DNA from: Bdellovibrionales bacterium
GTDB lineage: Bacteria > Bdellovibrionota > Bdellovibrionia > Bdellovibrionales > JAUICD01
Length of the DNA stretch: 64,000 nucleotides
Direction of reading: 5' to 3'
NCBI GenBank assembly: GCA_965203275.1
Contig: OZ241865.1
Span: 1,440,001 to 1,504,000 of the forward strand
Shown here: positions 16,504-62,396 of the stretch, one piece after another
Layout: each line of letters starts with the position of its first letter
Position numbering within the stretch: the first letter of the stretch is position 1
The notes under the pieces: model-generated
Seen by the model: only the letters and a program-made list of their open reading frames with translations
What the model was told of the DNA's origin: nothing
Database searches by the model: none
Translations under genes and position numbers: made by a program

Positions 16504-16776
16504 ATGAGTTACTTAGTTTTGTGGGAGAAAATAGATAAATATTTTAAACAGCATGGCATGATCACTTTTATTGTTCTATGTATGTTTATTTTACTTTTTT
16601 ATTTAACTTATCAAGTAACTAATCATCTCCCTACAGAAATCAGAGAGGTGAAGATAGAGCTTAAAGAAGACATTAAAGAGCTTAGGATAGAGCTTAAAGA
16701 AGACATTAAAGAAATTAAAGATGGGCAAGATATGATCATTAATCATTTACTTAATAATAATAAAAAAGGTCAATAA
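16504..16776 (+). CDS. Small TM + coiled-coil protein (NH[IL]P family)
   Basis: TM helix, VTNHLPTE, IELKEDIKE repeats. Confidence 0.7.
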   Translation: MSYLVLWEKIDKYFKQHGMITFIVLCMFILLFYLTYQVTNHLPTEIREVKIELKEDIKELRIELKEDIKEIKDGQDMIINHLLNNNKKGQ

Positions 16777-16819
16777 AAAAACAATCTCCTCACTGATTCC
16801 GCCGATAAAAATAATGCCG

Positions 16820-16878
16820 TTCGACTCATAACCTACTGATTTTAATCAACTTTATTTTTGCTGGCTATCAAACTCAGG
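16820..16878 (+). mobile_element. IS1634-like right-end remnant
   Basis: tcgactcataacctactgatttta...tcaaactcagg closely matches the reverse complement of 32872-32930. Confidence 0.6.
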
Positions 16879-16916
16879 AAGTTACGCAGAATCTAAAAAA
16901 AAACAAAAAAAAGAAA

Positions 16917-17092
16917 TCTTGTTTCCCTAACATGATGTTAAAAAACGAGGAGATCCTCCTTACTAAAAGTAAACGGACTTTTGAGGCATTGCTCTTTTTA
17001 GACAGCGATAGCTGTCAGAGCAATGTCCAAAAGCAACCAGAGGTTGGTTTACTTTTAGTGAACCAGAGGCATGATTTATTTTGAGTGAAACA
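16917..17092 (+). repeat. Palindromic repeat element plus the 3' end of a second unit
   Basis: tgtttccctaacatgatgttaa...tactaaaagtaaac...gtttacttttagtgaa. Confidence 0.85.
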
Positions 17093-37558: not shown

Positions 37559-37831
37559 CACTCAAAGTGAACAGGCTTTTGAGACAATGACCACTTTGTC
37601 AAAGGCGAAAAAAGTGAAATAAATATCTTGTTTCCTTAACTTCCTGTAAAGAAACAGGAGGATTCTTCCTACTAAAAATAAACGGATTTTTGAGGCAATC
37701 AGCCTTTGATCGACGGCGGTAGCCGTCGGGCTGATTGCCCAAAAACAGCCAGAGGCTGGTTTATTTTTAGTGAGACAAAATGCGGTCATTGTCCAAAAGT
37801 GGCCAGAGGCCAGTTCACTTTGAGTGAAACA
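37559..37831 (+). repeat. Nested pair of palindromic elements upstream of the pilin gene
   Basis: Outer stem CAAAGTGAAC/GTTCACTTTG enclosing an inner AAAAATAAAC/GTTTATTTTT unit. Confidence 0.9.
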
Positions 37832-38167: not shown

Positions 38168-40315
38168 ATGGATAAGATAATGGAGCTTAATAAAAATTTA
38201 TGGGAAAATGCAAATGAATTACTTGTATCTTTAGATATTAATCTTGTGATGACAGTATTTGTGATCTTGATATTTGGTTATTTTCTATACCATCTTGTTG
38301 AAATGTATAGAAGTACAAATACAATTGAGAAAGACCTAAAAGATGTTAATAATTTAATGGAACAATGTATAGGAAAGGATCGCAATCAATTTTATAGTAG
38401 AATGGTTACAGAATTTGATAAGATCAATAGTAAGTTAGAATCCAATGCATCCTTAAAACATAAATGGCATGAATTTAAAGAGCATATTATCTTTCTTTCT
38501 GATGAAGAATCGTCTCAATCTGATACAAATACACTTAAAATAAAAAATTCTATTCAACCTGATTTTTTCTTCCATGAAGAAGTTTTTTTAGAAGGTACAA
38601 ATGCAGATTTAAGATATTTGGATTCTATTCCAGGTAAGCTGACAAGCTTAGGGATTTTAGGTACATTTATAGGGCTTAGTATTGGTATCGCTGGGGCTAT
38701 GGTTGATGTCTCAGGAAATGCTATAACAATTGAATCATTAATTCCGCTTTTAAAAGGGGCAAGCTTAGCATTTATGACATCAGTGCTAGGGGTATTTTTA
38801 ACTATTATCTTCTCACATATTGAGAAAAGAAAAATCAAATCTATCCGCATTGAATTAAAAAAGTTTGTAGATTATTTAGAAAAGTCATTTAAATTAATCA
38901 CAACTGAACAGATCATATCAGAAGTGCATTTAAGTATTCAAGAACAAAATAAAAAGTTTGATGGTTTTAGCAATGAGCTAGCCGTAGCAATAGGAAACAC
39001 TTTAAAAGATCCACTGACAAAAGGCATCTCTCAAATTGTTGATGGGATGTCTTCTTTAAAATCTGCACAACAAAATATCAGCAATGACCTCATTGGTCAG
39101 TTAAGTGAGAAGCTTTCTGGAGGTTTATCTTCTCAGGTTCAAAAAGCTCAAGAACAAGCCGGTCAAACCTTGCATAACATACAAGGCATTTTCCAAGATC
39201 AGTCTCAACACATTATAACATCTCAAAATGAAATGATGGAAAAAACAAATCAAATGATGGCAAATATCTCTCATACCATTCAAGAACAACAAAAATTTAT
39301 GAAACATCAATCTGAAAAATCTGCTCATCATTTAGCTTCATCTCAAGAGCAAATCATTGCAACTACAAAACAAATGGTCAGTGATATTATCAATGCCACA
39401 GAAAGCCAGCAGAAAAATCTAATGGAACAAACTCAAGATTCAACCCATCAATTGATAGCTTCTCAAGATAAATTTGTTCACCTTCAAAATGATGTTCATA
39501 CAAAAGCAAAAGAAAACATAGCAGAACTTTTCAAAGCATCTCAAGATCAACAAAAATACATAGCAGAGCAAACTACAAACTCTGCAAGACACTTTGTTCA
39601 ATCTCAAAATAAGATGATAGAAAAAACAAATCAAATGATCACAAATATATCAGAGACGATTCAAGAACAAAGACATCAAATAACAGATCAAAATAAAAAA
39701 TCAACAGAGTCTTTTATAAAATCTGCACAAGAAGTTCTTTTTGAATTTTCTAAAGCATCTCAAGACCAACAGATACAATTTAAAAACCAAATAGCAAAAC
39801 ATTTAGAAGTATTTTCTACCATGGTAGAAAAAATCAAAGAAGCCTCGTATACTTTAATCCCACTTTTAAAACAGCTCCATAATAATCTTGATCAAAATAA
39901 AAATATTACAGAAGATAACAAGCATCTTATTGAAAAACAAAAAGAGCTTATTGCACATTTTAAAGATTGCTCAAATCAAATAAGTCGTTCAAGCCAGGAA
40001 CTCAATCAAGCAGGAGATTCTATTATGGAGGCTTCTAAATTTATAAAAGAAATACCTCATCAAATGCAAGAAACCAATCGCAACCTTGAAGCTGTTTGGA
40101 GTGATTATCAATCTCGTTTTGAAGGTGTAGATGAAAAACTAATTCGCACTTTTAACATATTTAAAGATGGTGCAAGTACTTATCAGAATGCTGTCGATGA
40201 ACATGTAAAAAATATAACAGCAGAATATAGCAAAGCCATTAATATTTTAGCAGATCAGTTAGAAGAATTAAGTGACATTCTTGATATAAGAAAGAACAAA
40301 GATTATGCTGCTTAA
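38168..40315 (+). CDS. zorA: Zorya ZorA (MotA-like with long tail)
   Basis: IPGKLTSLGILGTFIGL, AFMTSVLG, long Gln-rich coiled tail. Confidence 0.9.
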   Translation: MDKIMELNKNLWENANELLVSLDINLVMTVFVILIFGYFLYHLVEMYRSTNTIEKDLKDVNNLMEQCIGKDRNQFYSRMVTEFDKINSKLESNASLKHKWHEFKEHIIFLSDEESSQSDTNTLKIKNSIQPDFFFHEEVFLEGTNADLRYLDSIPGKLTSLGILGTFIGLSIGIAGAMVDVSGNAITIESLIPLLKGASLAFMTSVLGVFLTIIFSHIEKRKIKSIRIELKKFVDYLEKSFKLITTEQIISEVHLSIQEQNKKFDGFSNELAVAIGNTLKDPLTKGISQIVDGMSSLKSAQQNISNDLIGQLSEKLSGGLSSQVQKAQEQAGQTLHNIQGIFQDQSQHIITSQNEMMEKTNQMMANISHTIQEQQKFMKHQSEKSAHHLASSQEQIIATTKQMVSDIINATESQQKNLMEQTQDSTHQLIASQDKFVHLQNDVHTKAKENIAELFKASQDQQKYIAEQTTNSARHFVQSQNKMIEKTNQMITNISETIQEQRHQITDQNKKSTESFIKSAQEVLFEFSKASQDQQIQFKNQIAKHLEVFSTMVEKIKEASYTLIPLLKQLHNNLDQNKNITEDNKHLIEKQKELIAHFKDCSNQISRSSQELNQAGDSIMEASKFIKEIPHQMQETNRNLEAVWSDYQSRFEGVDEKLIRTFNIFKDGASTYQNAVDEHVKNITAEYSKAINILADQLEELSDILDIRKNKDYAA

Positions 40316-41069
40316 AAAAAAAGAACGAACTTCATATAATAACTCTCATGCACAGTTATCTATCAGTGACCTGATGTCTGGCTTGGTGTTTATTTTTATC
40401 ATTATTATTGTTATATTTGCCATACAATTAGATCAAACCAATAAACAAAAAATTCAAGCACTAAATGAACATAAAGAAACCAGTGATGCTCTTGAAGACA
40501 TATTAAAAAACATTCAAAAAAATTTTAAAGAAGAAGAAAATATACAAATAGAAGTGGATCTCGAAAATAAAATATTGCATTTACCGACAGATGTATTGTT
40601 TGAAAGTGGAAAATATACCCTTAATGAAGCAAAAGGTATTCCTATAGTTGAACGTCTGGGATGGCTTTTTAAAAAATATCTTGATTGTTCTGATCAAAAT
40701 CAAAATAAAAATCAAAATAAAATATGTGATGGCGATAAATTAAAATTAGAAACAATATTTATTGAAGGTCACTCTGATGATGTTCCACTAGGCTATAAAT
40801 TAAAACTGATTATAGGGTCAAATCTCAACCTTTCAGTTCAAAGAGCTATTCATACCAATAATGAGATGAAAGATCATATTCAATATCTTAAAAATTATCA
40901 AGGGGATTACTTATTCAGTGTTGTAGGTTATGGTGAAAAAAGACCTCTAACAAAAAAGCCAATTAATTTTAAGAACCTCCCTTTTAAAAAACAAGAAGAA
41001 TATCACAAAAAAAATAGAAGAATTGATTTAAGATTTTTAGTGGGTATCCCAAAAATATTAAGGAATTAA
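40305..41069 (+). CDS. zorB: Zorya ZorB (MotB/OmpA-like)
   Basis: SISDLMSGLVFIF, IEGHSD, NLSVQRA, NRRIDLRF. Confidence 0.9.
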   Translation: MLLKKKERTSYNNSHAQLSISDLMSGLVFIFIIIIVIFAIQLDQTNKQKIQALNEHKETSDALEDILKNIQKNFKEEENIQIEVDLENKILHLPTDVLFESGKYTLNEAKGIPIVERLGWLFKKYLDCSDQNQNKNQNKICDGDKLKLETIFIEGHSDDVPLGYKLKLIIGSNLNLSVQRAIHTNNEMKDHIQYLKNYQGDYLFSVVGYGEKRPLTKKPINFKNLPFKKQEEYHKKNRRIDLRFLVGIPKILRN

Positions 41070-41072
41070 GTT

Positions 41073-42494
41073 ATGCAAATATATCATCTACAAAAATTAG
41101 CTTATAAAAAAGCAAATGGGATAAACCTTTCAAAAGCTTTGGAAGAATTTAAACAGTTTGTAAAAGAGAAAATAAAAATATCTCAACAAGTCACAATAAA
41201 AGAGCCACTTCAAATGGAGAATATCTATTATGAAATTTCCAAGCACTGGGATCAAAATAAGAATTTAAAATTTTCTAAAAGGCGTCTTTATCGTAAAATA
41301 CCAATGCTCTTACCTTTTTCTTTTTCTTCCAAGCCTTCTCTTATTAAAAATAAAGAATTTTTAAAAGCTTATTTTAAAGATATACAATTAAATAATGATG
41401 ATCGCTCTGCAAGAAAGCTATTAAAAGCTATTTTAAGAAACTACGACTCATTTAATCAACTAGAAATAGAACAAATAATAACAGTTATAAAACCTATTAT
41501 CTCAAATGCCAAATCTAAAAAATGCCAGAGGCTTATTCAAATAGACTCTGATTATCATATTATTAGCAAAGAGATAGTTTCAAATATTGCAGAGAAAATG
41601 CTGAATAGCTCAAAATCTATTGAAGATATATTTTCAGATTTGTGTGAATGTATAAGTCCTGATCTTTGGGAAGGGAAATTAGGGGAAGCTATTGCGATGG
41701 AAATACTTAAAAAAAATCAAATAGAAATGCAAAATAATCACTTTAAATATTTAGAGCGTACCTTAAATTATTTTAAGAACAAAGAAGCCAATCAACTACG
41801 ATTAGAGCGTCTTAGCTCTGATCTGTTAGATTATTTATTAAGACCCTTTATAGAAAGGGATCCACAGCTAGATGTTAAAAATAAACTTTCTCAATTTATT
41901 GACACATATTTTGGTGACCCTCGTGTTGATCCTCGATGGGGAAACTTCATACTTAAGGATGAAATTAAACAAGTGGTCTTAAGATGGAAAACAGCCTTAA
42001 CCTTGAAGGCCTTCTTTAAATTACTAGATCATGTTGCTCAAACTGATCCCACCCATGATAGACATTGGGAAAGTAGAAGAAATTTTTGGAATGATTTCTT
42101 AGATAGACAAGAGATTCTTGAATCTTGGCTTATTTTAGGAAAAACACATATTAAAGTATTAAATAAATGGAGTAATAAAAAGGAAAAATTAGAATATGCT
42201 ACTTTTTTAAATAGCACAGGCATTCAAAATACTCACTCTGCCATTATAATGAAAATTAGAAACTTTATACTTGTAGAATGGTCTCATTCTGGAGCTTTAA
42301 GAATATACAAAGATACAGATAAAAGAAAACCAAAGCTTTATAAAAAAGAATATTATCCTAATGAAATAAAGAAAATAAAGCAACACACAGATGGTTGGAT
42401 TCAACATGATCAATATGAAAGATGGAAAGAAGAGGTAGAAGATATGCTCTTTGATAGAAGAAGAAAGAGAAAAATACTTAATACAAATTACTGA
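41073..42494 (+). CDS. zorC: Zorya ZorC (EH-signature protein)
   Basis: FGDPR...RRNFW...VEWSHSGALR. Confidence 0.85.
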   Translation: MQIYHLQKLAYKKANGINLSKALEEFKQFVKEKIKISQQVTIKEPLQMENIYYEISKHWDQNKNLKFSKRRLYRKIPMLLPFSFSSKPSLIKNKEFLKAYFKDIQLNNDDRSARKLLKAILRNYDSFNQLEIEQIITVIKPIISNAKSKKCQRLIQIDSDYHIISKEIVSNIAEKMLNSSKSIEDIFSDLCECISPDLWEGKLGEAIAMEILKKNQIEMQNNHFKYLERTLNYFKNKEANQLRLERLSSDLLDYLLRPFIERDPQLDVKNKLSQFIDTYFGDPRVDPRWGNFILKDEIKQVVLRWKTALTLKAFFKLLDHVAQTDPTHDRHWESRRNFWNDFLDRQEILESWLILGKTHIKVLNKWSNKKEKLEYATFLNSTGIQNTHSAIIMKIRNFILVEWSHSGALRIYKDTDKRKPKLYKKEYYPNEIKKIKQHTDGWIQHDQYERWKEEVEDMLFDRRRKRKILNTNY

Positions 42495-42534
42495 GATATG
42501 TTTTATGAAAAATTAAAAAACTAGAAGATAAACT

Positions 42535-45500
42535 ATGAAACTGATATTTAATATAGAAAAAAATGATGTTCATATCACAGCAAAAGATTCTTTAAATCAA
42601 CGAATTGCTGTAGAGCAATGGTCTACTCAAAATCCCAAGCTTGACTTCATCCATTTACTTCTTGAAGAAGCCAAAGCTTCACAAGATCAATACACATTGA
42701 TCATAGCAAAATCAAACATACCTGATCTCACATCTTATCAAATAGAACAGCTCTCTTTATATCCAGTCATTCCTTACACACTGCACTGTAAATCAACAGG
42801 TACTATTTTAAGAGACAACTATAAAATTATTGTCAATTTTAAAAGTTCTAGTGGTCTGCCACTTGGCAAGATAGAACGAAATGGTCCTTTTGCAAAAGTC
42901 GCAGGCAAAACCTACACTCTGATCAACCCTATTTATGAATCCTTACTGCTTATTGAACAAATCAACCAAAGCAAAGACAAAACAAAATTAATTCATCTTC
43001 AAAAACTTAAAGAAATACTACCTTTTCAATGTCTTAAAAATGATGAATCTTTGATAGAAACAGAAGTTTTTATTGCTAATAATTTTACTTTAAGAGTTAT
43101 TGATAGAGAAAATTTCTTATACACTCCTTGCTTTGTGGATGTAGACAAAGAAGCTGATGAAATGGTCTATTTATTAAATGACAAACAACAACAACAATAT
43201 TCAAAGCAGTTTTTAGATTATAATCAAGTCAAACTTCAAATGCAGATCCAAACTAATCAATTTATAGTTTTACCTCCTCGAACAAAACAGTTGATTGATG
43301 TAGTCAAATCGACCATTTCAAAAAGCTATCAAGAAAAAGCACGACTTTTTGCAAACCCTCATTCTTTTTTTAAAGAAGCTCTAGGAGAAAGTTATCTCAA
43401 TGAGCATGAAGATCTATTTGTTTTAGATCAAGCTTATGCTTCCGATAGGATTAGCCATATAGGAATATGGGAACCTAAAACTCAAGTATTTTTACCTCAA
43501 TATCAAAGTGAATGGTTTCCTCAATATTGTGTTGGCATTCCATTAGACAGAGGAATCATCTTTATGAAACCAGAAAATATAGAAAATAACTGTCAAAAAA
43601 TAGAGCAAGCTATCCGCAATAATATTCCTTTTGTTCAATGTGAAGGGCAAAAGATAAAGGCCACTCAAGAAAATCTTAAATTATTGAAAGAAACAGACGA
43701 AAGAATAAAAAAAGAAATAAAACCATCAGAATTGAATATAAAAGAAGAGAAAAAAGAAAAAAATCCTCCCATTGTAGCTATTATTAAAGACAATTTAGAT
43801 GAAAATGGAGTTTATAGTGCAAATAAAAATAAAAGGCAAATACAAGATGTGTTCTGTCCATCTTTATTAAACATTTCACTTTTTCCGCATCAAAAAGAAG
43901 GACTTTCATGGTTGCAAAATTCATGGAACAAATCTAAAAGAGGTGTTTTGCTAGCTGACGATATGGGGCTTGGTAAAACTTTGCAAATCTTAGCCTTTTT
44001 AGCATGGTTAAAGGAACTTGAACAAAATCAAAAAATAGATAAAAGACCTATTTTAATTATTGCATCTACAGGTCTGCTTAAAAATTGGGAAGACGAACAT
44101 AATAAACATCTAAAGGAGCCAGGCTTGGGTATACCAACAAAAGGATCTGATTTAAAACAACGTTTAATCCAAAAAGGGGAAGATTATATTGTGGATCGTT
44201 TTAAAAAATCTCATTGGGTATTAACGACTTATGATTCACTGGCAAGATACGAAAGTATTTTTGGGCATATTTCATGGCAAGTGATTGTTTTTGATGAGTG
44301 TCAGGCTATTAAAAATCCAAGTTCCTATCGTACAGATAGAGCTAAGATGATGGATGCTGATTTTTCAATTGGTTTAACTGGTACACCTGTTGAAAATAGA
44401 TTAAGTGACTTGTGGTGTATTTCTGACACGTTATATCCAGGCCTTCTTAAAACTTATAAAGAGTTTAAAAAAAGATATGAAGATAAACAAGATCATTTAA
44501 AAGAATTAACTCAAATAATGAAGGAAGGTCATCCTCCGTCCTTTATGCTTAGAAGAATGAAAAAAGATCATATCAAAGGTTTAACTCATAAGAAAGAGAT
44601 CATCAAAAAGGAATTGATGCCTCAAAAACAAACTTCAGGTTATGATGCTATTTTGCAAAAGGTACAATCTCAAAGATATAGAAAGTCTATGGTGGCTATT
44701 CAACATCTTAAGTCTATGAGCTTAGCTTCTAAGTTTGATGAAAACTTAGAAGATCAAGCATTTATAAACAGTTCAGCTAGGTTGATTGCTTTATTTAAAA
44801 TTTTAGATGAGATTGAATCAAGGAGAGAAAAAGTTTTAATATTTTTAGAATCTCGTCATTTGCAAGAAAAACTTATTCCAATTATAAAGAGAAAATACAA
44901 GCTAAATCACTCACCTCTTTTAATCAATGGTCAAGTGGCTGGACAACAAAGAAAACAAAAGGTAGATATTTTTCAAAATTTACCACTAGGATTTGATGTG
45001 ATGATTTTATCTCCTAAAGCTGGTGGAACAGGCTTAACACTCACAAGAGCTAATAATGTTATTCATTTAGAGCGGTGGTGGAATCCAGCAGTAGAAGATC
45101 AATGTTCAGATAGAGTTTATAGAATTGGTCAAAAAAAAGATGTTAATATTTATATTCCTATGGCTATTCATCCATCTATAAAGAGCTTTGATATGGTTTT
45201 ACATGAAAGGCTTAAGAAAAAAAGAGAGTTAAGTCAGAAGGTGATTGTTCCAACAAAACTTGATTCAGAGGATTATAAAGAAATTTTTGAAACAACGACA
45301 GGTGAAACTTTTGAAGATGATCAGGATCAGAAAGATAATTTCTACAAATCCCGAGCATGGCATGAATTGAGATATCGTATCTTTAATAAATATGGGCATA
45401 GATGTCAAAAATGTGGTGCTGATCAGAGTCAATCGACCCTGCATGTGGATCATATCAAACCAAGATCAAAGTATCCTCAATTGGAATTAGACCCTAACAA

Positions 45501-45570
45501 CCTTCAAGTTCTTTGTGAAGAATGTAACTTAGGAAAATCAAACAAACATGAAGATGACTACCGACCTTAG
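42535..45570 (+). CDS. zorD: Zorya ZorD: SNF2 helicase with C-terminal HNH nuclease
   Basis: LADDMGLGKT, DECQ, TGTPVEN, WWNPAVEDQ; C-terminal CQKC..HVDHIKP..NLQVLCEECNLGK. Confidence 0.85.
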   Translation: MKLIFNIEKNDVHITAKDSLNQRIAVEQWSTQNPKLDFIHLLLEEAKASQDQYTLIIAKSNIPDLTSYQIEQLSLYPVIPYTLHCKSTGTILRDNYKIIVNFKSSSGLPLGKIERNGPFAKVAGKTYTLINPIYESLLLIEQINQSKDKTKLIHLQKLKEILPFQCLKNDESLIETEVFIANNFTLRVIDRENFLYTPCFVDVDKEADEMVYLLNDKQQQQYSKQFLDYNQVKLQMQIQTNQFIVLPPRTKQLIDVVKSTISKSYQEKARLFANPHSFFKEALGESYLNEHEDLFVLDQAYASDRISHIGIWEPKTQVFLPQYQSEWFPQYCVGIPLDRGIIFMKPENIENNCQKIEQAIRNNIPFVQCEGQKIKATQENLKLLKETDERIKKEIKPSELNIKEEKKEKNPPIVAIIKDNLDENGVYSANKNKRQIQDVFCPSLLNISLFPHQKEGLSWLQNSWNKSKRGVLLADDMGLGKTLQILAFLAWLKELEQNQKIDKRPILIIASTGLLKNWEDEHNKHLKEPGLGIPTKGSDLKQRLIQKGEDYIVDRFKKSHWVLTTYDSLARYESIFGHISWQVIVFDECQAIKNPSSYRTDRAKMMDADFSIGLTGTPVENRLSDLWCISDTLYPGLLKTYKEFKKRYEDKQDHLKELTQIMKEGHPPSFMLRRMKKDHIKGLTHKKEIIKKELMPQKQTSGYDAILQKVQSQRYRKSMVAIQHLKSMSLASKFDENLEDQAFINSSARLIALFKILDEIESRREKVLIFLESRHLQEKLIPIIKRKYKLNHSPLLINGQVAGQQRKQKVDIFQNLPLGFDVMILSPKAGGTGLTLTRANNVIHLERWWNPAVEDQCSDRVYRIGQKKDVNIYIPMAIHPSIKSFDMVLHERLKKKRELSQKVIVPTKLDSEDYKEIFETTTGETFEDDQDQKDNFYKSRAWHELRYRIFNKYGHRCQKCGADQSQSTLHVDHIKPRSKYPQLELDPNNLQVLCEECNLGKSNKHEDDYRP

Positions 45571-48420: not shown

Positions 48421-49186
48421 TTAGTAAAAGTGGTCTGACCTCTGTTTCCCTAAAATTGAACTAGCCGTCATTTTCACTCAAAATGCATCATGCCGTCTTT
48501 TGCACTTGAAATGAACCACACCTCTGTTTCCCTAAAATTGAACTAGCCTCTGGCTACTTTTGGGCAGTTAGCCCGACGACTGTCGTCGTCGATCAAAGGC
48601 TAACTCCCTCAAAAGCTTGTTCAATTTTAGGAAGAAGGATGTCCTCATTTCTTAACAGCATGTTAAGGAAAAAGAGTTTCATTTGTAAACCTGCTTGCTC
48701 TTAAGGCAATAAAAGAACTTTTTCCCTAACATGGTGTAAAGGAGTAAAAAGATCCTCCCCTACTCAAAATGCATAGATTTTTGAGGCAATGACTATTTTG
48801 TCAACGTGAAGTAAACATCTTGTTTCCTTAACATCGTGTAAAGAGACAAGAGGATTCTTCTTACTAAAAATAAACGGATTTTTGAGGCATTGCTCTTTTT
48901 GGACAGCGTAAGCTGTCAGAGCAATGCCCAAAAACAGCCAGAGGCTGGTTTATTTTTAGTGAAACAAACGCGGTCATTGCCCAAGGTGTAAGAAGGAACT
49001 TTTTCCTTAACATGTGGTCAAGAGACGAAGAGATTCTTCTTCCTAAAATTGAACAAGCTTTTGAGGCGGTTAGCCTTTGATCGACGGCGGTAGCCGTCGG
49101 GCTAACTGCCCAAAAGTAGCCAGAGGCTAGTTCAATTTTAGGGAAACAGAGGCATGATGCATTTTGAGTGAAATATTAAGGAAAAA
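48421..49186. repeat. Nested cluster of palindromic elements
   Basis: Reverse-oriented nest 48421-48680 and forward nest 48720-49172 (outer CAAAATGCAT/ATGCATTTTG with two inner units). Confidence 0.9.
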
Positions 49187-49269: not shown

Positions 49270-49932
49270 TTATTTTTTCATTTTTTGTTTTCTAGCCTCT
49301 AAGATTCTTAAATGCTGTTTTTTCTCTTCGTCTCCATCTCTACAGCATTTTTTATATTTCTTCCTGCTTCCACAAGGACATTTTTCATTTTTTCCTATTT
49401 TCTTAAGTGAAGTTATATATTTTTTGCTATCTTCTATAGCTTCCTCTATACCTTTTTTGCCATGAGAATATTCCCCGCATGGTGGTATTTTCCTATACTT
49501 TTCATAATAAGCTTGCCATACAAAATATGGGTAAACTCTGTAAATAATAAAATCTTTGAGAGATGCGGTTCTTTTAAGGGGAATCAATTCTAAACAACAA
49601 CTCTTGTCATTAGGATAGAGGTGTAAATCTTGAACTTTTTTGTTTAATTTTTTTGCCAGTCTTTCAATTTTTTCACCGATCTCATATACTTTTGGCCATC
49701 CTAGTGGATGATTATTAAAGTCAATTTCTATGAGATACTCACCTGTAACACATTCATTTTCATTTGTTTCACAAGGCTTTATCTCCCACTGATCTATGGA
49801 ATTTTCTTTTTTCACATAGTGACAGGGATGAATAATAATATGACCGGTAATTTTATTATCATTCTGACAATATTTAAGATCAGGAAACCATTTAAGAGTT
49901 TCTTTAAAATCATTACTTGAATATTCTATCAT
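49270..49932 (-). CDS. E2/UBC-like protein with C-terminal SEC-C motif (CBASS ancillary)
   Basis: YLIEIDF..WPKVYE..LHLYPNDKSCCL; GKNEKCPCGSRKKYKKCC; start inferred at MIEYS. Confidence 0.7.
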   Translation of the reverse strand: MIEYSSNDFKETLKWFPDLKYCQNDNKITGHIIIHPCHYVKKENSIDQWEIKPCETNENECVTGEYLIEIDFNNHPLGWPKVYEIGEKIERLAKKLNKKVQDLHLYPNDKSCCLELIPLKRTASLKDFIIYRVYPYFVWQAYYEKYRKIPPCGEYSHGKKGIEEAIEDSKKYITSLKKIGKNEKCPCGSRKKYKKCCRDGDEEKKQHLRILEARKQKMKK

Positions 49933-50902
49933 CAAACGCATAAGGTTTAGTTGCTGGTACTGTAGGAAGAATAGCACTTTCTTTACGAGAAGACGAAGAA
50001 TCTATCAATCGACCAAAATGATCACCGAATAATTCACGCCATTTTTTGACGCTACTATTGTAATCTTCTTCTTCAAAAGCTTGATTAATTTTTCCATTAT
50101 ACGAATTAAACTTTTCTCTAAAATTCTTATATTTTACTTCATCCCAATGCCTGTTGAAATCCTCACTTGACATCACTGGATTTTTAATAATTGGCATAGA
50201 TGGACGGTTTTGCAAAAAATTATTTAGTCTATTTGAGAGGGTTTTCAAAGTTGTTGGTAAATCTGAAAAGCTTTCACTGTCTTTATCATCAGTTTGCACC
50301 ATATTACCTAAAAGAGTGGTCAACAGTATTGACTTAACAGAAAAGTTATCTTTATGATCTCTCAAAAATTTTAAAAGTCTAGTCACCTTTCTAAAATTAT
50401 TATTACCAACAATTTCATTTTTTTGTGCTAGCCATTGTTTATATCCATCACCATCTGTTGGCTCATATTTGCTATCGTTTCTATTAGTGATATAATGTAC
50501 TTCATTATGTTCTACACAAGGGACAATATCTAAGTGAAAATCACCAGCATAATTAATTGTCACACATCTTGTCTTTTTATTGATCTTATCTTCGTAATTG
50601 CCATTATTTTTGAATATCTCATAAATTTTTCTTACATAGTCAGTTTTAAAATCATTTGGATTAAAATCAGAATCCTGAATAAATATCAATAGATCAGCAT
50701 CAAACTCGTCATTATCTTTTACAGGTTTAATAATAGTTTTATGGGCATAAGAACCTTGCTCACTAAACTTTCTGTAACCTGACAAATTTTCTTTAAGTAA
50801 TTTCGTGATTGTTTCTATGCGTCCTTTTAATGTATCTAACCGGTCTTGATTAAGATCTACACGCTTAGACAAAAAATCTTTAAAATCTCTTTCGTGCTTC
50901 AT
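49913..50902 (-). CDS. CBASS CD-NTase (cGAS/DncV-like nucleotidyltransferase)
   Basis: QGSYAHKTIIKP..EFDADL..RCVTINY..FHLDIVP. Confidence 0.9.
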   Translation of the reverse strand: MKHERDFKDFLSKRVDLNQDRLDTLKGRIETITKLLKENLSGYRKFSEQGSYAHKTIIKPVKDNDEFDADLLIFIQDSDFNPNDFKTDYVRKIYEIFKNNGNYEDKINKKTRCVTINYAGDFHLDIVPCVEHNEVHYITNRNDSKYEPTDGDGYKQWLAQKNEIVGNNNFRKVTRLLKFLRDHKDNFSVKSILLTTLLGNMVQTDDKDSESFSDLPTTLKTLSNRLNNFLQNRPSMPIIKNPVMSSEDFNRHWDEVKYKNFREKFNSYNGKINQAFEEEDYNSSVKKWRELFGDHFGRLIDSSSSRKESAILPTVPATKPYAFDDRIFK

Positions 50903-51823
50903 TTATACCTCCTTAAGAAAATTCTTAATTTTTGCACTTTGGTTTGTAAACTCTTGCTTTGCTTTTTCTTTGAAATTAGCTATTTCTCTATAATTGTCAA
51001 GACTACAATATTCGATATTTGGATTAATTCTCAAAATATTGTCTTTATTATCCTTAAAAATCAAATTTAAGACATTTTCTGGAAACTTTGTCTGACAAGA
51101 CATAACAAAATCTACAAATTTAGTTTTTTCCCATCCATATAATAGTCCCCAATTTTTTGATTTTTGATAACATTGTTCTGATTTTCCAGTTCCTATAGAT
51201 AATATTTTGACATTATTTGTCTTTGCTTTAAAATTATTAATAGCATCTGTATAACCCACAAGAGCGGGATTATTTGCCCATATACCTCCATCACAAATAA
51301 GAGTTCCATTTATATTTACTGGGTCAAAATAAGTTGGTGTTGCACAAGAAGCTAAAACAGCTTTAAATAAAGGTATTTCGCCATCTCTCACATAGCCAGC
51401 GTTTCCTCTTTGCTTCTGCTGGTAAGCCGACTTAAAAACATGGACGTCTCCCATACTGACATTTGTAGCATTAAGAATAAGAGGTTTTTTAATTTCTCCT
51501 AGCTTTTTCTCTTTGAATTTCTGGTGAAGAAATATCTCTAAGTGATGATTATTATATTTTGATCTAAAAAGTCCACATAAATTCCATTGTTTTTGAAAAA
51601 TCTCAGGAGCCTTTTCTGAGTAATCATCAACTAATTGAGCTAAATCACTGTCTATTGCCACTGTTCCAGCTACAATGCTCCCTGTGCTTGTACCGACAAT
51701 AAGATCAAAAGTATCATGTATTTTTATATTTAGCTTTGCTTCTATAAGAGCTAATATCTTAGTAGCAAATATTCCCTTTATCCCACCTCCATCAATACTT
51801 AAAATTTTAAACATTTTATTCAT
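50903..51823 (-). CDS. capV: Patatin-like phospholipase CBASS effector
   Basis: DGGGIKG, GTSTG, DGGIWANNP; directly upstream of the CD-NTase. Confidence 0.85.
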   Translation of the reverse strand: MNKMFKILSIDGGGIKGIFATKILALIEAKLNIKIHDTFDLIVGTSTGSIVAGTVAIDSDLAQLVDDYSEKAPEIFQKQWNLCGLFRSKYNNHHLEIFLHQKFKEKKLGEIKKPLILNATNVSMGDVHVFKSAYQQKQRGNAGYVRDGEIPLFKAVLASCATPTYFDPVNINGTLICDGGIWANNPALVGYTDAINNFKAKTNNVKILSIGTGKSEQCYQKSKNWGLLYGWEKTKFVDFVMSCQTKFPENVLNLIFKDNKDNILRINPNIEYCSLDNYREIANFKEKAKQEFTNQSAKIKNFLKEV

Positions 51824-51900
51824 TTATATACCCTTCTTGCAATGATCATGTCTAAGTAATTTCAATGGATTATATTATTTCCACCTATTGTAAACAGTCT

Positions 51901-52122
51901 TTATCCTAGATTATTACTCCTTCTTCCATCAGGATTAGATACAGGAGTTTTTATTCCATTAATCTTTCTTATATGGTAACTAGGATACTTTTCACGCTCT
52001 ATTCCTCTGACAAATTGAGGTCTAGTCATCTTTTTGTGTGTTTTTTTATCAATAAAAAGCACATTTCGACCTGTCTCTGACTTTTTATCAACTTCGATTG
52101 CTTTTCTATTATTTTTTACCAT
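51901..52122 (-). CDS. Small basic protein, DUF3892-like
   Basis: C-terminal SNPDGRRSNNLG; SD AAGGGG; leads the CBASS operon. Confidence 0.55.
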   Translation of the reverse strand: MVKNNRKAIEVDKKSETGRNVLFIDKKTHKKMTRPQFVRGIEREKYPSYHIRKINGIKTPVSNPDGRRSNNLG

Positions 52123-52184
52123 TATTTACCCCCTTATATTATTAGTAATAACAAACATACCCTTTCACTTTAGAGCTTTATAAA

Positions 52185-52567
52185 AAAGTGTGTTCGATAG
52201 AAAAAAAGTCAAGGAGGTGGGCAAAAATAAATTTGATTTTTTTAAGAAAGGCAACAAACATTTGAATTTTTTAGTGAAGAAGCCACCATCAACAATATAA
52301 GCTATTCTGTCCATTTCAAAAAGCCTCTAAGAAACCTCTAAGCTTTATAAAAAAATGGGCCTAAGTGTCCAACCCTAAAGTTTATTAGGGAATAAGGAAC
52401 AGAGACCCGTGTATTTTCATATCTTTATATATAATCTTCGCCTAAATGATCTAAAAAGTCAAGAGGAATAGGCAAATAAATTTTTTAAAACAATAAAAGG
52501 CACCATTAACTCCATCTACTCCCCTATCGTAGAAGCTTAAAAACCTCAAATACCTTGACAAAATTGG
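52185..52567. repeat. ~380-bp inter-cassette repeat, copy 2
   Basis: Similar to copies 1 and 3. Confidence 0.9.
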
Positions 52568-52639
52568 AACTATTCAATCAAATAAGAAACAGTTTTGTAA
52601 TTATACGTACATGAAAATATAACTAAAAAAGGAAAAAAT

Positions 52640-53311
52640 ATGATTACTTCTAAATATATTCAAAATACCTTTCTCATTAAACATGATAATAAATGCGGAT
52701 CTTGTTTTAAAGTTATTAAAACAAAAAAATATTCATATCTAATCACAGCAAAACATGTTATCTCAAAATTAAAAGATAATGATATTATAAAAATATATTT
52801 TAATAATCCTCATGGCTGGTATGATATAAAAGCCATTAAAATTCTTCATTGCGATGATACTGATATATCTATTTTTGTTTTTGATGATTCAAAAAAAACA
52901 TCAGTAACTTTTCAATTACCTATGAGTTCTAATCATTTAATTTGTGGTCAAGATATTTTTATTTTAGGATTCCCTCTTGAAATAACTCAAGATACAAGAA
53001 TACAAGATCAAGAATCTTCAACTCCCCTTCCTTTAATAAAGAAAGGAGCTTTATCAGGTATAACGCCCGTTGACAAGAAAACTATTTTTTATGTGGATAT
53101 ACATATTAATCAAGGATTTTCTGGAGGCCCCGCTTTATTTAAAAATCAATTTGATAATGAAATAAAAATTTTTGGCGTTGTTTCAAGCTACATCTGTGAT
53201 CAAATTAAAGGGAAAAACGTTTTAGCCAATAGTGGCATTGGCCTTGTTGAATGTATCTCTTCTGCCTCTAAAATTATTGAGCAGGCTAGGAAAGAACTAC
53301 AAGATACATAA
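52640..53311 (+). CDS. Trypsin-like serine protease, no signal peptide
   Basis: LITAKHV, DISI, NQGFSGGP catalytic triad motifs. Confidence 0.85.
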   Translation: MITSKYIQNTFLIKHDNKCGSCFKVIKTKKYSYLITAKHVISKLKDNDIIKIYFNNPHGWYDIKAIKILHCDDTDISIFVFDDSKKTSVTFQLPMSSNHLICGQDIFILGFPLEITQDTRIQDQESSTPLPLIKKGALSGITPVDKKTIFYVDIHINQGFSGGPALFKNQFDNEIKIFGVVSSYICDQIKGKNVLANSGIGLVECISSASKIIEQARKELQDT

Positions 53312-53349
53312 AGTCTCATTTAAAAGTTTAAGTAATAAATAAAAATACT

Positions 53350-54722
53350 ATGAAAAAGAAACAAAAATTAAATATCTTAAAAAGAGATAATTATAAATGT
53401 GGTATTCATTTAGGTGGTTGTGGTAAAAAACTTTCTCTTGATTCGATGACCATTGATCATATTGTTCCAAAAAATATATTGAAAGGATGCAAGGAGTATA
53501 AAAAACAATTTAAAAAGTACAAATTTATAGATAATGAGTTCTTTAATCTGCAACCTATGTGTTTAGAATGTAAAAGCAAAAAACAAGGCAATTTTCCTCC
53601 AAATAACATAGTAAAAAATGTTCTAATAAATGTTGCAATTTTATTTATCTTAAATATGAAAAAAAGAGTAAATATTATTTAGTCTTTATTCATTATCTGT
53701 TAAAAGATGCTGAAAATCTTCATTATTCAAACGAACCATCAGCAATGAACTGTGTAGCTTTTATATTTAATTTCATACAAATTCAATTCAAATATGCAGA
53801 TGGAAGTAAGTCACCACAAATATATATGTTAAGAGGTGAAAGTAAGAATTATGTAGGTTTTCAAAAGAATAAAGTGGGAGGTTTAGTTTCTGAAGTAGAT
53901 ATGATCAGAAACAACCAACAATATGGCCAAAAAGAAATATCCGAAGCTATAAAACATCTAAATATTCAGCTTAAAAGAATTGACAAACCAAGGTTGCTCC
54001 TAATTTCTGAAATAAGCCAGTGGCATATAAGAATAGCAGTGGAAGGAAATATTTCTGAGTATTCAAAAGCAATTAAAGAAAGTAAAAATAGTATTGAAAA
54101 ATACTATAGTGAATGCCACTCTTTTTATGGAGTTACTGTTTTATGTGAATTTCAAGGCAAAAAAATCATAGAACAACATCCTCTATCTGCTCAATATCTT
54201 TCTTTTGGAACTCAATTTCCAAATAAACCTCAATTGAAAGGTCAATCAACTCATGCATTAGTGTCAATAGATAAACTGAAAAAAGAGAATATAACAGATT
54301 ATTTATTGAAATCATATATCATATTTATATATCAATTATGGGAAACACGCTTTCGCTCTGAAATAGCAAATCATTTTGGTATTGAAAACACAAATGTAAG
54401 GTGTGATTTTTTTGGTGATTTAAGGGTGATAAGAAATAGTTTGATACATGAAAGTGCATCAATGTTAAGGAAAGATGTAGAAAATTTTAAAGTCCTCAAG
54501 TTTGGATTAAATAAAAATCTTACAAAAGGAATTTTAATCACGTCCCCTGCAATACTTGGACATATTATGGAACAACTCAACTTAATGCAAATAGATATAG
54601 CATTGAAAGATAAGTATATTACTTTCAAAATGTGTCCTGTTGTCGCTGATTCTATAATAAAAGGGCAACTACATTATCAGACAGAAACCAGACATAATCT
54701 AAATATAACCCCATTATTATAG
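53350..54722 (+). pseudogene. HNH + HEPN-like protein split by a one-base frameshift (ORFs 53350..53682 and 53745..54722)
   Basis: RDNYKC..TIDHIVPK..NLQPMCLEC; the -1 frame from the A6 run at 53613-53618 is open into the 53745 ORF, which has RNSLIH. Confidence 0.65.
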
Positions 54723-54843
54723 ATCAATTTTAGTTAGAGCTACTCATAAAAGAGGAACTCCTGTATGCGATTTTGAATTATCTGCAAATTCAGTAAATTG
54801 ACAAGAGTATTTAATAAATTCTTTTAATTCATCAATGTTTATT

Positions 54844-55269
54844 TTATCTATATTTGATAATTTTAGAAAGTAATGATTTTATTTTTGCAAAAAATCTAAC
54901 AGGCTTCTTTTCTTTTTCAATATTTAATTGTTTTTCTTGTATTTGATAATATTTCTCTTTTTTGAGTAAGTCTTTCCTTCTTCCTTCTAAAATTTCTTTT
55001 TTAGACCATCTTCTACTCCAAATAATATTACTATTTTTTATCCAATAGTGAGATTTACAATTAAAGCTCCAGTTTCCTATAGAAGGATCAAGTGAAATAG
55101 TATATCCATTATAGATAATTTTCCAATCTGTAGGACTTATAGGCGTGACGACTTCTTCACCACATCCACAAAAACAATTATGAGAAGCTGTATTATATTT
55201 TATAGAAATATAGATAATATTATCTTCTAAGACATTTGGAATATTTGTAACAAATTTATGTTTGATCAT
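54844..55269 (-). CDS. DUF6527-like protein (Bub-operon peptidase)
   Basis: HNCFCGCGEEVVTP..W..SLDPSIGNW..CKSHYWI. Confidence 0.8.
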   Translation of the reverse strand: MIKHKFVTNIPNVLEDNIIYISIKYNTASHNCFCGCGEEVVTPISPTDWKIIYNGYTISLDPSIGNWSFNCKSHYWIKNSNIIWSRRWSKKEILEGRRKDLLKKEKYYQIQEKQLNIEKEKKPVRFFAKIKSLLSKIIKYR

Positions 55270-56464
55270 CTACTTTGTCCTCATTTATTAAAGAATTGCA
55301 CTCTATTTGATATAAAGTAGTATACTCTTTACTACAATCAAAATAAAATTCGTTTATTTTTTTCCACTTTATTACAGCTAGGGAAGCATTAAGAGCATTA
55401 AGTTCAGCAACTTGAATATTTGTTGAATATGGATCATTATTGCCATCAGAATATGAAACTCTATTATCAAGATGATTTTTCTTATCTTTTGTGCATAGAG
55501 TAGTTCTTACATTACCAAGTATTTTTTGATCTTGATTACAAAGTCCCATTCCTACATCAATAAATGGTATCTCTTTATTGATGAGAAAATTGAATAATTC
55601 TTTTTTAACACATCCTTGATCTATACAGATGAAAACAAAGCTTTTTTCTGATAATTTATTAAACTTAGATGATTTAATATTATATGGATAAGAGATGATA
55701 TTTTTGTGCATTTTCGAATAAACTTCCTTTAAATAATTCGTTTTTTTGACTTTTTCATTTAAATTTTCCTTTGAAGCTACTCCAGGAGTTCTAAAGGCAT
55801 TATGATTTAAAAAAATATCACCATCAAATAAACTGATTTCTCTGACAGGTGTTTTTGCAACAAAATCTAAGATATAAGCTCCAGTTCCTCCCAAACCTAT
55901 AATGGCAATTTTTTGATCTTTTAACTTCATAGATATATTATTAATATTAGATTTACTTGAATTGGTATCTTTATACTGAAATACAGAATTATCCATATCT
56001 TTATCTTTAGATATAGATTGTCTAGAAGTTGCTGTCACAGAAGAGTCTATTGATTGAGCTGGATGAGAAATAATACGAACATAATTAGTTATTTTTTCAT
56101 AATAATCTTTATATCCCTCATTTGGCTTATTTGAAAATGAATATTGAATATCATAACCAGCAATATTTTCATTTTTTGATTCATTTCGAATTGACTCTAT
56201 AGGGTTCCCTTGATTATCACAAGGATACTCCCCTGTAAAGAAAATAACGTGGGTTTCTGGCTTAACTGTTTTATCTCCGGCTAGTGTTAAAGCTGATATA
56301 AGCTCACCGTATTTAATTTCTTTTTTGGAATTGATATATGGAATCTTATGAACAATTAGATAAGAATCCTTTATTTCAAGCTTATAACCATCTTCTTTAA
56401 GTTTTTTTAAATCAGAGCTATGATTTATCAGTTTTTGTGACACTAAACACCATCCCATCTTCAA
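55256..56464 (-). CDS. E2-like + ThiF/E1 adenylyltransferase fusion (Bub-like)
   Basis: IAIIGLGGTGAY, FDGD...HNAFR, NIQVAELNALNA; N-terminal FSNKP..Y.DYYEK domain. Confidence 0.8.
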   Translation of the reverse strand: MKMGWCLVSQKLINHSSDLKKLKEDGYKLEIKDSYLIVHKIPYINSKKEIKYGELISALTLAGDKTVKPETHVIFFTGEYPCDNQGNPIESIRNESKNENIAGYDIQYSFSNKPNEGYKDYYEKITNYVRIISHPAQSIDSSVTATSRQSISKDKDMDNSVFQYKDTNSSKSNINNISMKLKDQKIAIIGLGGTGAYILDFVAKTPVREISLFDGDIFLNHNAFRTPGVASKENLNEKVKKTNYLKEVYSKMHKNIISYPYNIKSSKFNKLSEKSFVFICIDQGCVKKELFNFLINKEIPFIDVGMGLCNQDQKILGNVRTTLCTKDKKNHLDNRVSYSDGNNDPYSTNIQVAELNALNASLAVIKWKKINEFYFDCSKEYTTLYQIECNSLINEDKVDDQT

Positions 56465-60199: not shown

Positions 60200-61222
60200 A
60201 AGTGGTCAGACAGCAAGCTTCTCTGAAGCTTGCCATGTAACAACACTAGGCAATGACCATTTTGTCAATGGCGAAATATCAAAGTGAAATAAACATTTTG
60301 TTTCCATAACATCGTGTTCATCTGGGATCCGGGATCGGGCAATCCGGCATCAAAAGGAAATTTTTCCTTAACATGGTGTTAAAAAATGAGGATATCCTCC
60401 TTCCTAAAATTGAACAGGCTTTTAAGGGTATCAGGCAGAAAAGGCATTTTGTTTCCTTAACATGATGTTGATCCGGGATCCCGGGATCCGGCAACCCGGC
60501 ATCAAAAAGAATTGTTTCCTTAACATCATGTTAAGAAACGATGAGATTCTCTCTACTCAAAGTGAACAGTCTTTCTAGGCGATGACCATTTTGTCAACGT
60601 GAAATAAACATCTTGTTTCCTTAACATCGTGTAAAGAGACAAGAGGATTCTTCCTATTAAAAATAAACGGATTTTTGAGGCAATCAGCCTTTGATCGACG
60701 GCGAGAGCCGTCGGGCTGATTGCCCAAAAACAGCCAGAGGCTGGTTTATTTTTAGTGAGACAAACGCGGTCATTGCCCGAGGTGTAAGAAGGAACTTTTT
60801 CCTTAACATAATGTTAAGAAATGAGGAGATCCTCCTTCCTAAAATTGAACAGGCTTTTGAGGCAGTTAGCCTTTGATCGACGGCGAGAGCCGTCGGGCTG
60901 ATTGCCCAAAAACAGCCAGAGGCTGGTTTATTTTTAGTGAGATAACGCCCAAAACACACCAGAGGTGTGGTTCATTTCAAGGGAAACAGAGGCTGGTTTG
61001 CTTTTAGTGAGACAAATGCGGTCATTGCCCGAGGTGTAAGAAGGAACTTTTTCCTTAACATGATGTTAAGAAATGAGGACATCCTCCTTCCTAAAATTGA
61101 ACAGGCTTTTGAGGCAGTTAGCCTTTGATCGACAGCGACAGCCGTCGGGCTAACTGCCCAAAAGTAGCCAGAGGCTAGTTCAATTTTAGGGAAACAGAGG
61201 TCAGACCACTTTTAGTGAAACA
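60167..61222 (+). repeat. ~1-kb multiply nested cluster of palindromic elements
   Basis: Outermost stem TAAAAGTGGTC (~60197) / GACCACTTTTA (~61204) encloses several complete and partial units. Confidence 0.9.
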
Positions 61223-61229
61223 ACCAGGC

Positions 61230-62312
61230 CTATTTAAAGAAACCTGTTTGAGCTTCTAATATCTTTTGATAAATATGATGAGCCTTTGAAGATGAGCTAG
61301 ATGATAGCTTCTTTTTTTTGGCACTTGATTTTTTCTTTTTAGTTGAGGGTGAATTTTCTTGAATTAATGATAGATTATGTGCCTGAAAAGCTTGTTGTAA
61401 ACTAGTTAATTGATCCAGAAGCTTCTTATTCACCAAAGTGCTTGCTTGAGATTGTGACTTTTCCCTTTTAGTTAGCTCTTTTGAAAAAACTTTAAGCTGT
61501 CCTAGAATTTCTTTTTTTTCTGATACAAGTGTTTGAATTTGTTTTTTAAGCTTTTCAACTTGCATAGAATGTTTTTTCTCTGATTGAGATTGACTTTCCT
61601 TGGATGCTATAAGGGCCTTTTCTAATTTTATAAAGTTATTTTTAAGCTTTAGGATATCTTGATTTAGTTTTTGATTTTTAATGAGATACTCTTGAGCTTT
61701 TTGGTTCTCTGCTTCTTTTTGAGTGAGTTGCTTTTGCATTTGACCTGTAGCCTTTTGAAAAGCTTTTTCTTTATCACGTAATTCTGAAGATAATCTTTGA
61801 ATATATTTGTAAGCATCTTTGAGCTGTTTTTGAAAAAGAAATATTTTCTCTTTTTGATAGAGAAGCTCTTTGTTGCCTTGAATAGATTCTTGTTTAATTT
61901 TTTGAATATAAGGCCTGACCCGTTGATGAATGTGTTCTCTATATTTTGCAAGACGAAGAGTATAAGCCCGAAGTTTTAAAATTTGATCTCTCCAAGCTTG
62001 TTTTTTTTCTAAAAAATGAGTGTACTCAAGTGCAAATTGTTTTTCCGTATCAGCTAAGTTATCTTTAAATTGTTGGTGAGAGTTTTGTAACCCTTGATAA
62101 GAGATTTGTAAACTTTGATAAGCTTTTTGAAGGTTTTGTAGTTTTTCTTCTTTATCTTGGTTAGCTCCAGATAGACTTTGGTATTGTGCCTTTAATTGTT
62201 GTATTTGTTTTTCTTTGTTTTTGCAATGGTGTGAAAAAGTAGCCACTTTACTAGAAAGAGTCTTATTTTGTTGAATAAGGGCTTCCATTGTTCTTGTAGG
62301 AAAATCTATCAT
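61230..62312 (-). CDS. Long coiled-coil hypothetical protein
   Basis: Q/K/E-rich heptads; AGGAG SD. Confidence 0.65.
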   Translation of the reverse strand: MIDFPTRTMEALIQQNKTLSSKVATFSHHCKNKEKQIQQLKAQYQSLSGANQDKEEKLQNLQKAYQSLQISYQGLQNSHQQFKDNLADTEKQFALEYTHFLEKKQAWRDQILKLRAYTLRLAKYREHIHQRVRPYIQKIKQESIQGNKELLYQKEKIFLFQKQLKDAYKYIQRLSSELRDKEKAFQKATGQMQKQLTQKEAENQKAQEYLIKNQKLNQDILKLKNNFIKLEKALIASKESQSQSEKKHSMQVEKLKKQIQTLVSEKKEILGQLKVFSKELTKREKSQSQASTLVNKKLLDQLTSLQQAFQAHNLSLIQENSPSTKKKKSSAKKKKLSSSSSSKAHHIYQKILEAQTGFFK

Positions 62313-62396
62313 AAAAAACTCCTTATCTTGATGTTTATAGTTTCATTTTCATTATAAGAAACTCTATCAAAATAAGTAAAGGTTTATTCCAAAAAA

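Follow-up and report, generated by a model that had tools for sequence, protein, structure and literature searches.

Little is understood so far of how REP-like repeats spread, and for several families no transposase is known. As described in passages of the published accounts (PMC3333891, PMC3116915, PMC6006769, PMC3733652), REP, BIME and REPIN sequences are intergenic imperfect palindromes present in hundreds of copies, arranged in mosaic clusters and tandem arrays, with single-strand folding that includes conserved mismatches, variable junctions and restriction to one lineage; the CGTC REP families apparently lack a dedicated transposase (PMC3733652). The element that we describe here, from the genome of a Bdellovibrionales bacterium, resembles them in these respects, but it is a 150-nt three-way junction with an invariant, unpaired 12-bp head, not the 20–60-bp hairpin or doublet of those passages. 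It carries no 5' GTAG/CGTC tag at the hairpin foot: the folding strand reads CTAC, TTAC or TTCC there and its partner TTTCAC, and on the complement GTAG is found only 3' of the stem. No RAYT (Y1 HUH) gene was found in its host genome, and the congener has only an IS200 TnpA. In tag, doublet structure and RAYT gene the element departs from the REP family, from which it also differs in occupying about 7% of the genome, in its extensive self-nesting and in base pairs that assort almost independently. Like IS91 and IS801, as portrayed in part of PMC3189936, it has one fixed and one variable end, captures flanking DNA at the variable end and makes no fixed target duplication, but it appears to use no strict target tetranucleotide and target DNA is lost. 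The bias at its fixed end towards AACAA/AACAG (5–6 nt) behaves as an element tail, and joints also occur at TGG, TCC and other sequences. It resembles MITEs, as outlined in sections of PMC3184786, in being short and non-coding, and possibly in its imperfect terminal inverted repeat of about 10 bp (TTTCCYTAAC / TTKAGKGAAA), but has no fixed target-site duplication, its ends behave differently from each other, and no cognate IS was found. Insertion coupled with deletion, microhomology, a favourable loss of RecJ and the presence of competence genes recall the HFIR and SPDIR repair pathways (passages of PMC3240628 and 10.1101/2023.11.22.568220); such accidents of repair are rare, however, and are not known to maintain an element with defined ends at 1000 copies, and their entry at the nascent lagging strand would fit only if the complementary strand is the integrated one. 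We infer that the element works like a REP/BIME system with the one-ended habit described for IS801 in part of PMC3189936.

The window analysed here is the whole 64,000-nt stretch at positions 1440001–1504000 of the single 2.57-Mb contig (C1) of the host genome (G000; 35% GC, 90% complete), and analyses of a congener, the sister genome G001, took in 2,659,000 of its 2,939,090 bases (90%). The element is a non-coding three-way hairpin of about 145–150 nt. Pattern searches of G000 returned 589 complete monomers, together with 1352 right and 1297 left ends, the left-end pattern taking in some chance matches, and the footprint is at most 195,744 bp (7.6%) in 451 clusters, an upper bound, heptamer repeats being present in one query. 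The head (profile columns 11–32) consists of the invariant TTTCCYTAACAT, three free bases and GTYAARA. Its geometry, CCYTAAC-ATNNN-GTYAARA, is that of two inverted 7-bp arms round a 5-nt spacer, as in integron attC/attI-type sites, and the invariant 12 bp are common to both genomes. The candidate integrases found in the two carriers are an XerD-like protein and a short integrase. A loose small hairpin at columns 36–50 is followed by stem A (columns 51–63 paired with 139–152), which encloses stem B, where a single A is unpaired, then a bulge rich in T and an apical hairpin whose loop is GNNA, as well as hairpin C (columns 125–137) with its AGA loop; GTGA and a 5–7-nt A/C-rich tail lie 3' of stem A. 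Compensatory change was observed at 29 of 42 pairs in 24 copies from three assemblies, together with a conserved T.G pair and an unpaired A. No Rfam 15 family matched at the gathering threshold (best score 38.6 bits, cut-off 100).

The element was detected in 3 of 41 and in 3 of 149 related genomes, the third being G004. We rejected G004 as a carrier: its copies lie on small contigs, one of which (C11) holds a second rplB that is 96% identical to that of G001, whereas the other rplB of G004 is 69% identical. This second rplB leaves the element known only from the genus of G000 and G001. C11 (L011), and also C1 (L013) and C4 (L012), are likely to be misbinned contigs from that genus, the rplB test having been applied to C11. 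In a head-motif scan of contigs, multi-copy matches occurred, among those listed, only in one 2.94-Mb Bdellovibrionales contig.

The sequence-only reading had described an outer unit interrupted by complete inner units at its apical loop and just before CAGAGG. This nest is real and lies where it had been placed, at 48721–49171 (+ strand), and the interruptions do fall at both places, but they are not clean: the outer unit has lost 12 nt of its apical hairpin and about 8 nt ahead of CAGAGG, and has gained 17–19 foreign bases at the two joints. The outer left half (48721–48806, +) comprises the head TTTCCYTAACAT, the small G hairpin, the left arms of stem A (48764–48774) and stem B, the bulge and the start of the apical hairpin, and terminates in TTTGTCAACG. 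A 17-nt leader of the apical-junction family (48806–48822, +), foreign to the monomer and resembling a right-end remnant, introduces inner unit 1 with its 7-nt tail (48823–48969, +; unit 48823–48962, stem allele A4), behind which the outer unit resumes at column 108 with its stem-B right arm (48970–48982, +). The second leader, of 19 nt (48983–49001, +), belongs to a family that joins outer units at any column from 104 to 130 and also follows unrelated repeats. It precedes inner unit 2 (49002–49149, +; unit proper 49002–49144, allele A7), whose tail AACAG overlaps the CAG of CAGAGG, and the outer right remainder then runs from CAGAGG to the right end (49147–49171, +). The outer stem-A arms, 48764–48774 and 49157–49167, are of one common allele. 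Joined to the right end is an inverted head arm (49172–49186, −), a junction class with 99 copies. On the other side, a 49-nt spacer (48672–48720), of a family that recurs genome-wide, separates the outer unit head-to-head from a complete reversed unit (48529–48671, −; head 48660–48671, right end 48529–48544). Behind the reversed unit are stacked four outer right-hand remainders (48421–48528, −), each made up of the hairpin-C right arm, the stem-A right arm and the end, each joined at the C-loop position (48521–48526, 48493–48498, 48465–48471 and 48439–48444) and bearing four different stem alleles between them. The 481-nt nest folds with z = −13.8 relative to shuffles.

Two further composites in the window had been said to repeat these breakpoints. 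At 60515–61218 (+; claimed as 60570–61222), the two junction sequences are both present again, but no right arm matches the outer left arm (allele A2), indicating a recombinant composite, which also contains a partial tandem duplication. Its terminal right end lies 11 nt (61219–61229, +) from the stop codon of a convergent gene (61230–62312), a case of right-end abutment, and the junction of right end and gene (61197–62400) is identical in contigs of two public runs that are possibly the source samples. Contigs of six public runs contained no empty site, the contigs breaking at repeats. At 37562–37827 (+; claimed as 37559–37831), the right joint is apical as had been proposed, but on the left the joint is displaced onwards by 6 columns, to column 101 beyond the loop; the outer arms match (A2), and the outer unit is headless and begins with an inverted right end. 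Additional copies on both strands occupy 15608–17090, among them one C-loop remainder at about 17062–17090. Defence genes of Zorya-like (ZorA and ZorD matches) and CBASS-like (cyclase and E1-like matches) type adjoin the nests at 37562 and 48421 (window 38168–45570 and 49270–56464).

Of the 1352 right ends in G000, 571 are followed by non-element DNA. The other 781 continue into another copy, 139 of them at its head, 99 at an inverted head arm, 481 in the same strand at column 40 or beyond, and the rest elsewhere. By column, the 481 same-strand joints comprise 230 at 128–134, 71 at 135–142, 61 at 71–81, 37 at 40–70, 32 at 107–110, 23 at 87, 19 at 113–122 and 7 at 91–101. Columns 128–142 thus hold 301 of 481 right joints, while the 298 left joints are spread across columns 71–122, with 5 at 128–134 and 8 at 128–150; remainders shorter than 12 nt are invisible in these counts and short remainders may copy more easily, which inflates the 3' columns. 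With tail alleles collapsed and a linker of at most 9 nt, 454 same-strand right joints fall into 51 types, 11 of them with at least 10 copies. The claim that elements insert at the same two positions was therefore too narrow, the two sites named being the commonest right joint and a mid-ranking one among about a dozen common junctions. Nesting itself exceeds chance, in that the outer pairs of 46 of 125 nests have matching stem-A alleles, compared to 16.3 ± 3.7 in 5000 shuffles. In the other 79 the outer arms do not match, 434 right arms have no left partner, and neighbouring head sites are almost unlinked, all of which supports modular recombination between nests, an alternative that the sequence-only reading had offered.

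The CAGAGG joint in the loop of hairpin C is the commonest right-end joint in both genomes (230/481 in G000, 27/89 in G001), and it occurs with all seven hairpin-C alleles and with several tails. The tail AACAGA alone is found there in 121 copies, representing 52 allele combinations and all 7 C alleles, and the common tail AACAG and the CAGAGG target have CAG in common. The outer left half is absent in 56 of 107 full units that are followed by a C-loop joint, and remainders are stacked two or three deep in 44 of 250 runs (37 doubles, 7 triples), with four consecutive at 48421–48528. Because left joints do not cluster at CAGAGG (5/298), this position behaves as a stopping point for right ends and not as an insertion site. 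The C loop itself is joined by at least three unrelated leaders in G000 and by one in G001, suggesting some real preference for it; since neighbouring sites exchange freely and allele combinations do not count events, the CAGAGG joint may have had one origin or many.

The apical joint is of a different kind. Inner allele A4 is found in 33 of the 37 right joints at columns 107–118 (2 mis-called rows dropped), against 103 of all 1352 right ends (a background of 8%), and nearly all of these joints have one common tail. One inner head haplotype is present in 16 of 32 left joints at columns 95–96, compared to 48 of 873, and all left joints at columns 95–102 have a single leader family, of which the column-95 form could be derived from the column-101 form via slippage between short repeats. 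Among 89 internal joints in the examined 90% of G001, none was at the apical columns 107–108. These observations fit one ancestral composite, copied and partly reshuffled. Descent from a single composite was the outcome that the sequence-only reading had named beforehand as counting against its proposal, and the apical site largely conforms to it.

At the joints, target DNA is usually lost and not duplicated. Among 39 allele-matched nests with a called left joint (3 mis-called rows dropped), 34, two of which are double nests, lack target sequence between the joints, which meet precisely in 2 others and overlap in 3. A check for target-site duplications found none of fixed length, and overlaps at joints are rare (1, 3, about 27 and 31 nt). 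Comparison of filled and empty paralogous sites, read by eye among those listed, revealed a loss of about 8–49 nt, or in one case a diverged duplication of about 27 nt, with microhomology at both ends. Many joints have 0–5 nt of microhomology and some, as in a CRISPR repeat, have none. The flanks at the left and right ends do not co-vary, pairing of left with right flanks gave no clear excess over shuffles, and a fixed leader length was looked for and did not emerge. Several hotspots fall on unpaired positions (columns 73, 87 and 130–133).

The two ends also differ in their relation to genes. Free right ends fall in the interval from −30 to +20 nt around a facing stop codon 95 times out of 189, left ends 3 times out of 44 (Fisher p = 2e-8), and among random intergenic points 6.7% lie 0–20 nt from a stop codon; in G001, right ends abut stop codons in 20 of 74 cases, compared to about 5%. 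Right ends also come within 12 nt of seven of the 35 tRNA genes, next to the 5' end or the CCA (expected 0.36; maximum 3 in 2000 permutations), and a few native flank bases often remain at these joints (read by eye). Seven tRNA genes are abutted in G001, only Ser-GCT being common to both genomes: the right end is 5 nt before tRNA-Ser(GCT) in each (G000:C1:781172, G001:C1:858255), an insertion that is possibly older than the species split. G001 also has four tandem partial tRNA-Trp-like copies, without CCA, directly upstream of tRNA-Trp. Two CRISPR arrays terminate at a right-end joint, and three arrays end at an element joint. Of 870 conserved orthologues, 21 now end in element-encoded residues, and just 11 of these have shorter C-termini. 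Within a four-helix gene family, the left joint remains at nt 199–201 while the right joints step through 204–207, 251, 269 and 284; similarly, the GCCAA tail joins the element at columns 73, 93, 113, 129–133 and 140–142. These series suggest that the right end acts as a deletion ratchet, with pauses where it meets a short microhomology such as CAG, and repeated downstream re-joining halted by selection is the simplest reading of abutment and stepping taken together. On a counter-reading, the stepping series could consist of independent insertions, and the abutment could reflect insertion aimed at gene ends together with selection. Searches of openly accessible papers listed no description of the element or of a right-end deletion ratchet for REP-like repeats.

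Sequence exchange within the element family is very fine-grained. The normalised mutual information amounts to 0.8 between the paired columns 128 and 136 and 0.15 between the neighbouring columns 127 and 128, and between neighbouring head sites it is mostly below 0.1, polymorphic sites there being almost unlinked. Because of this exchange, allele combinations cannot be used to count insertion events. In G000, stem base pairs assort almost independently of adjacent pairs, with both partners of a pair remaining linked, a pattern that is not easily squared with linear crossovers alone.

Folding favours the top strand over its complement in 104 of 120 monomers with DNA parameters and in 113 of 120 as RNA, and the stems of this strand tolerate G.T/U pairs. 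Apical loops are GNYA in 157 of about 500, and GNYA loops lie outside the GNRA rule of RNA. The folding strand serves as lagging-strand template in 72 G001 clusters and does not in 46 (p = 0.02, a modest bias), which is the side used by IS200/IS605 elements according to passages of PMC6006769. In G001, third-position GC skew marks out the replichores clearly; in G000, with about four times as many element copies, the skew is flat, which suggests many inversions.

Searches for an enzyme that could move the element returned no Y1, RT or IS110 gene in G000 (90% complete), no plausible candidate in an HUH-motif scan of 4626 frames, and no Y2 transposase in five genomes (G000–G004), in a search whose control was silent too. 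G001 contains three RTs, intron- and retron-like, and one IS200 TnpA, none with a homologue in G000. Each carrier has two tyrosine recombinases, the XerD-like protein (L001) and the short integrase (L002), both of which types are also present in the element-free G002. Cas1 was rejected as the mover: its 4 loci all accompany CRISPR arrays, and no element 14-mers were found in four arrays. G000 has four CRISPR-Cas loci (C1:238802–245690, 369711–378000, 1990534–1995600 and 2266383–2278444), judged from gene size and sequence rather than from a family scan to be two Cas9-like, one Cas12a-like and one multi-subunit. Rpn proteins (16, 19, 0, 16 and 1 matches in G000–G004) and four-helix cassettes (14, 19, 0, 0 and 19) do not track the element. 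The Rpn/YhgA-like nuclease family (window 17740–18723) is nonetheless expanded, with about 16–19 loci each in G000, G001 and G003 and none in G002. The four-helix-bundle (PF05635) genes, multi-copy in G000, G001 and G004 (for example C1:819120–819425 in G000, and loci L183–L206 in G001 and G004), have short heptamer-like flanking repeats and mosaic synonymous variation, and may constitute a second mobile family with no obvious enzyme. An IrrE-like peptidase gene (G000:C1:1220364–1221760; G001 L308:1162–2570), present only in the two carriers among the five genomes, was considered as well, as the sole orthologue that is element-flanked in both; the protein has no recombinase domain. The short gene that follows it, presumably of PIN/DUF4411 type, is cut by the element in both genomes, at different places.

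With slightly more belief than doubt, we hold that the nests are element copies within older copies, that their junctions have been inherited and reshuffled, and that the right end re-joins downstream, pausing at microhomologies. The recurring breakpoints are likely to represent a limited set of junctions, inherited via copying of whole composites and reshuffled by recombination. Mechanistically, the top strand would fold while single-stranded, probably on the lagging-strand template, and a putative structure-dependent cut-and-rejoin activity would join its 3' end (stem A and the 5–7-nt A/C-rich tail) to a new target. The left side would be resolved sloppily, 10–25 nt upstream of the invariant head, carrying donor flank along as a leader. 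Repeated re-joining of the right end would then remove the DNA beyond it until selection calls a halt, at a stop codon, a tRNA end, a ribosome-binding site or the last stem arm of an outer unit; within nests, the simplest reading is that re-joining drives right joints to the last microhomology before the outer stem arm. Composites and 26-nt remainders may subsequently be copied and exchanged as modules.

It is conceivable, although we consider it unlikely, that the element is selfish DNA without an enzyme of its own. A nuclease-resistant folded strand would survive exonucleases in a recJ-less lineage and, after host uptake, re-enter by homology-facilitated or short-patch illegitimate recombination, a resident copy anchoring one end and a microhomology joint forming at the other. 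Nests, mosaics and right-end deletions would all be by-products; the genome would be pruned from right ends until stop codons, tRNA ends and CRISPR repeats are touched, and the element would evolve base pair by base pair through exchange among about a thousand copies. Target loss and the 0–5-nt microhomology at many joints agree with this, as do the presence of ComEC and DprA in both carriers, the failure to find recJ in G000 or G001, and that to find ExoI in any of the five family genomes. In passages of PMC3240628, HFIR involves insertion with deletion at 3–10-bp microhomology and rises 20-fold without RecJ, and SPDIR likewise rises without RecJ/ExoX according to part of 10.1101/2023.11.22.568220; yet the SPDIR rates reported in such passages are about 1e-9 to 1e-13, with indels of 3–100 bp. 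Moreover, recJ is missing from 12 of 41 relatives, 10 of which are element-free in the contigs that belong to them, and the loss of recJ can thus be no more than permissive. ExoVII is present in both carriers, as are MutS and MutL, and mismatch-repair loss was rejected. The bias of the folding strand is to the template side and not to the nascent lagging strand, some joints lack microhomology, and the invariant 12-bp head in both genomes suggests a dedicated binding protein. Site-specific self-targeting, as the sequence-only reading had proposed, in which a mobilising enzyme recognises the loops of a folded resident copy and inserts there repeatedly, we regard as distinctly doubtful. It would account for the leading place of CAGAGG in both genomes with all C alleles and several tails, for matched outer arms of alleles 1, 5 and 6 that flank one junction type, and for the hotspots on unpaired positions. 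But left joints rarely occur at CAGAGG, nearly all apical junctions carry one allele, the conservation of leaders follows families and not events, and 571 of 1352 right ends join non-element DNA, so that self-targeting does not follow from the junctions.

An RNA intermediate, whereby the top strand is transcribed, reverse-transcribed and target-primed via its A/C-rich 3' tail with variable 5' joints, is very improbable in our estimation. The sharp 3' end with its ragged tail, the variable 5' leader, the deletions and occasional duplication, the joints within a few bases of tRNA ends, the tolerance of G.T/U pairs and the better folding of the top strand as RNA (113/120) are all compatible with it. 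However, no RT was found in G000 and those of G001 are intron- or retron-like without G000 homologues; about a third of apical loops are GNYA, co-orientation with neighbouring genes is not clear, and native flank bases often remain at tRNA joints. We find it slightly harder still to credit a tyrosine recombinase acting at the head and at the related right-end arm, even though the inverted 7-bp arms round a 5-nt spacer, the 99 right ends joined to an inverted head arm and the two tyrosine recombinases of each carrier would suit one. Both recombinase types also occur in G002, right joints lie mostly at unrelated sequences with target lost, leaders of 10–25 nt are unfit for exchange over a 6–7-bp overlap, and there is no spacer-specific break in linkage.

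Since every copy is both donor and target, the genome is a readable record of some 780 junctions, and it is this polar record, together with the missing enzyme, that gives the element its importance, rather than two targeted sites. The junctions point to a polar process in which one end re-joins and deletes, by which the C-termini of at least 21 conserved proteins have been rewritten, and which could explain why hairpin repeats abut stop codons and tRNA ends. Should a new structure-specific enzyme prove to be the mover, single-strand recombination would gain a new tool; if there is no such enzyme, the element would be a mobile element built solely on host repair.
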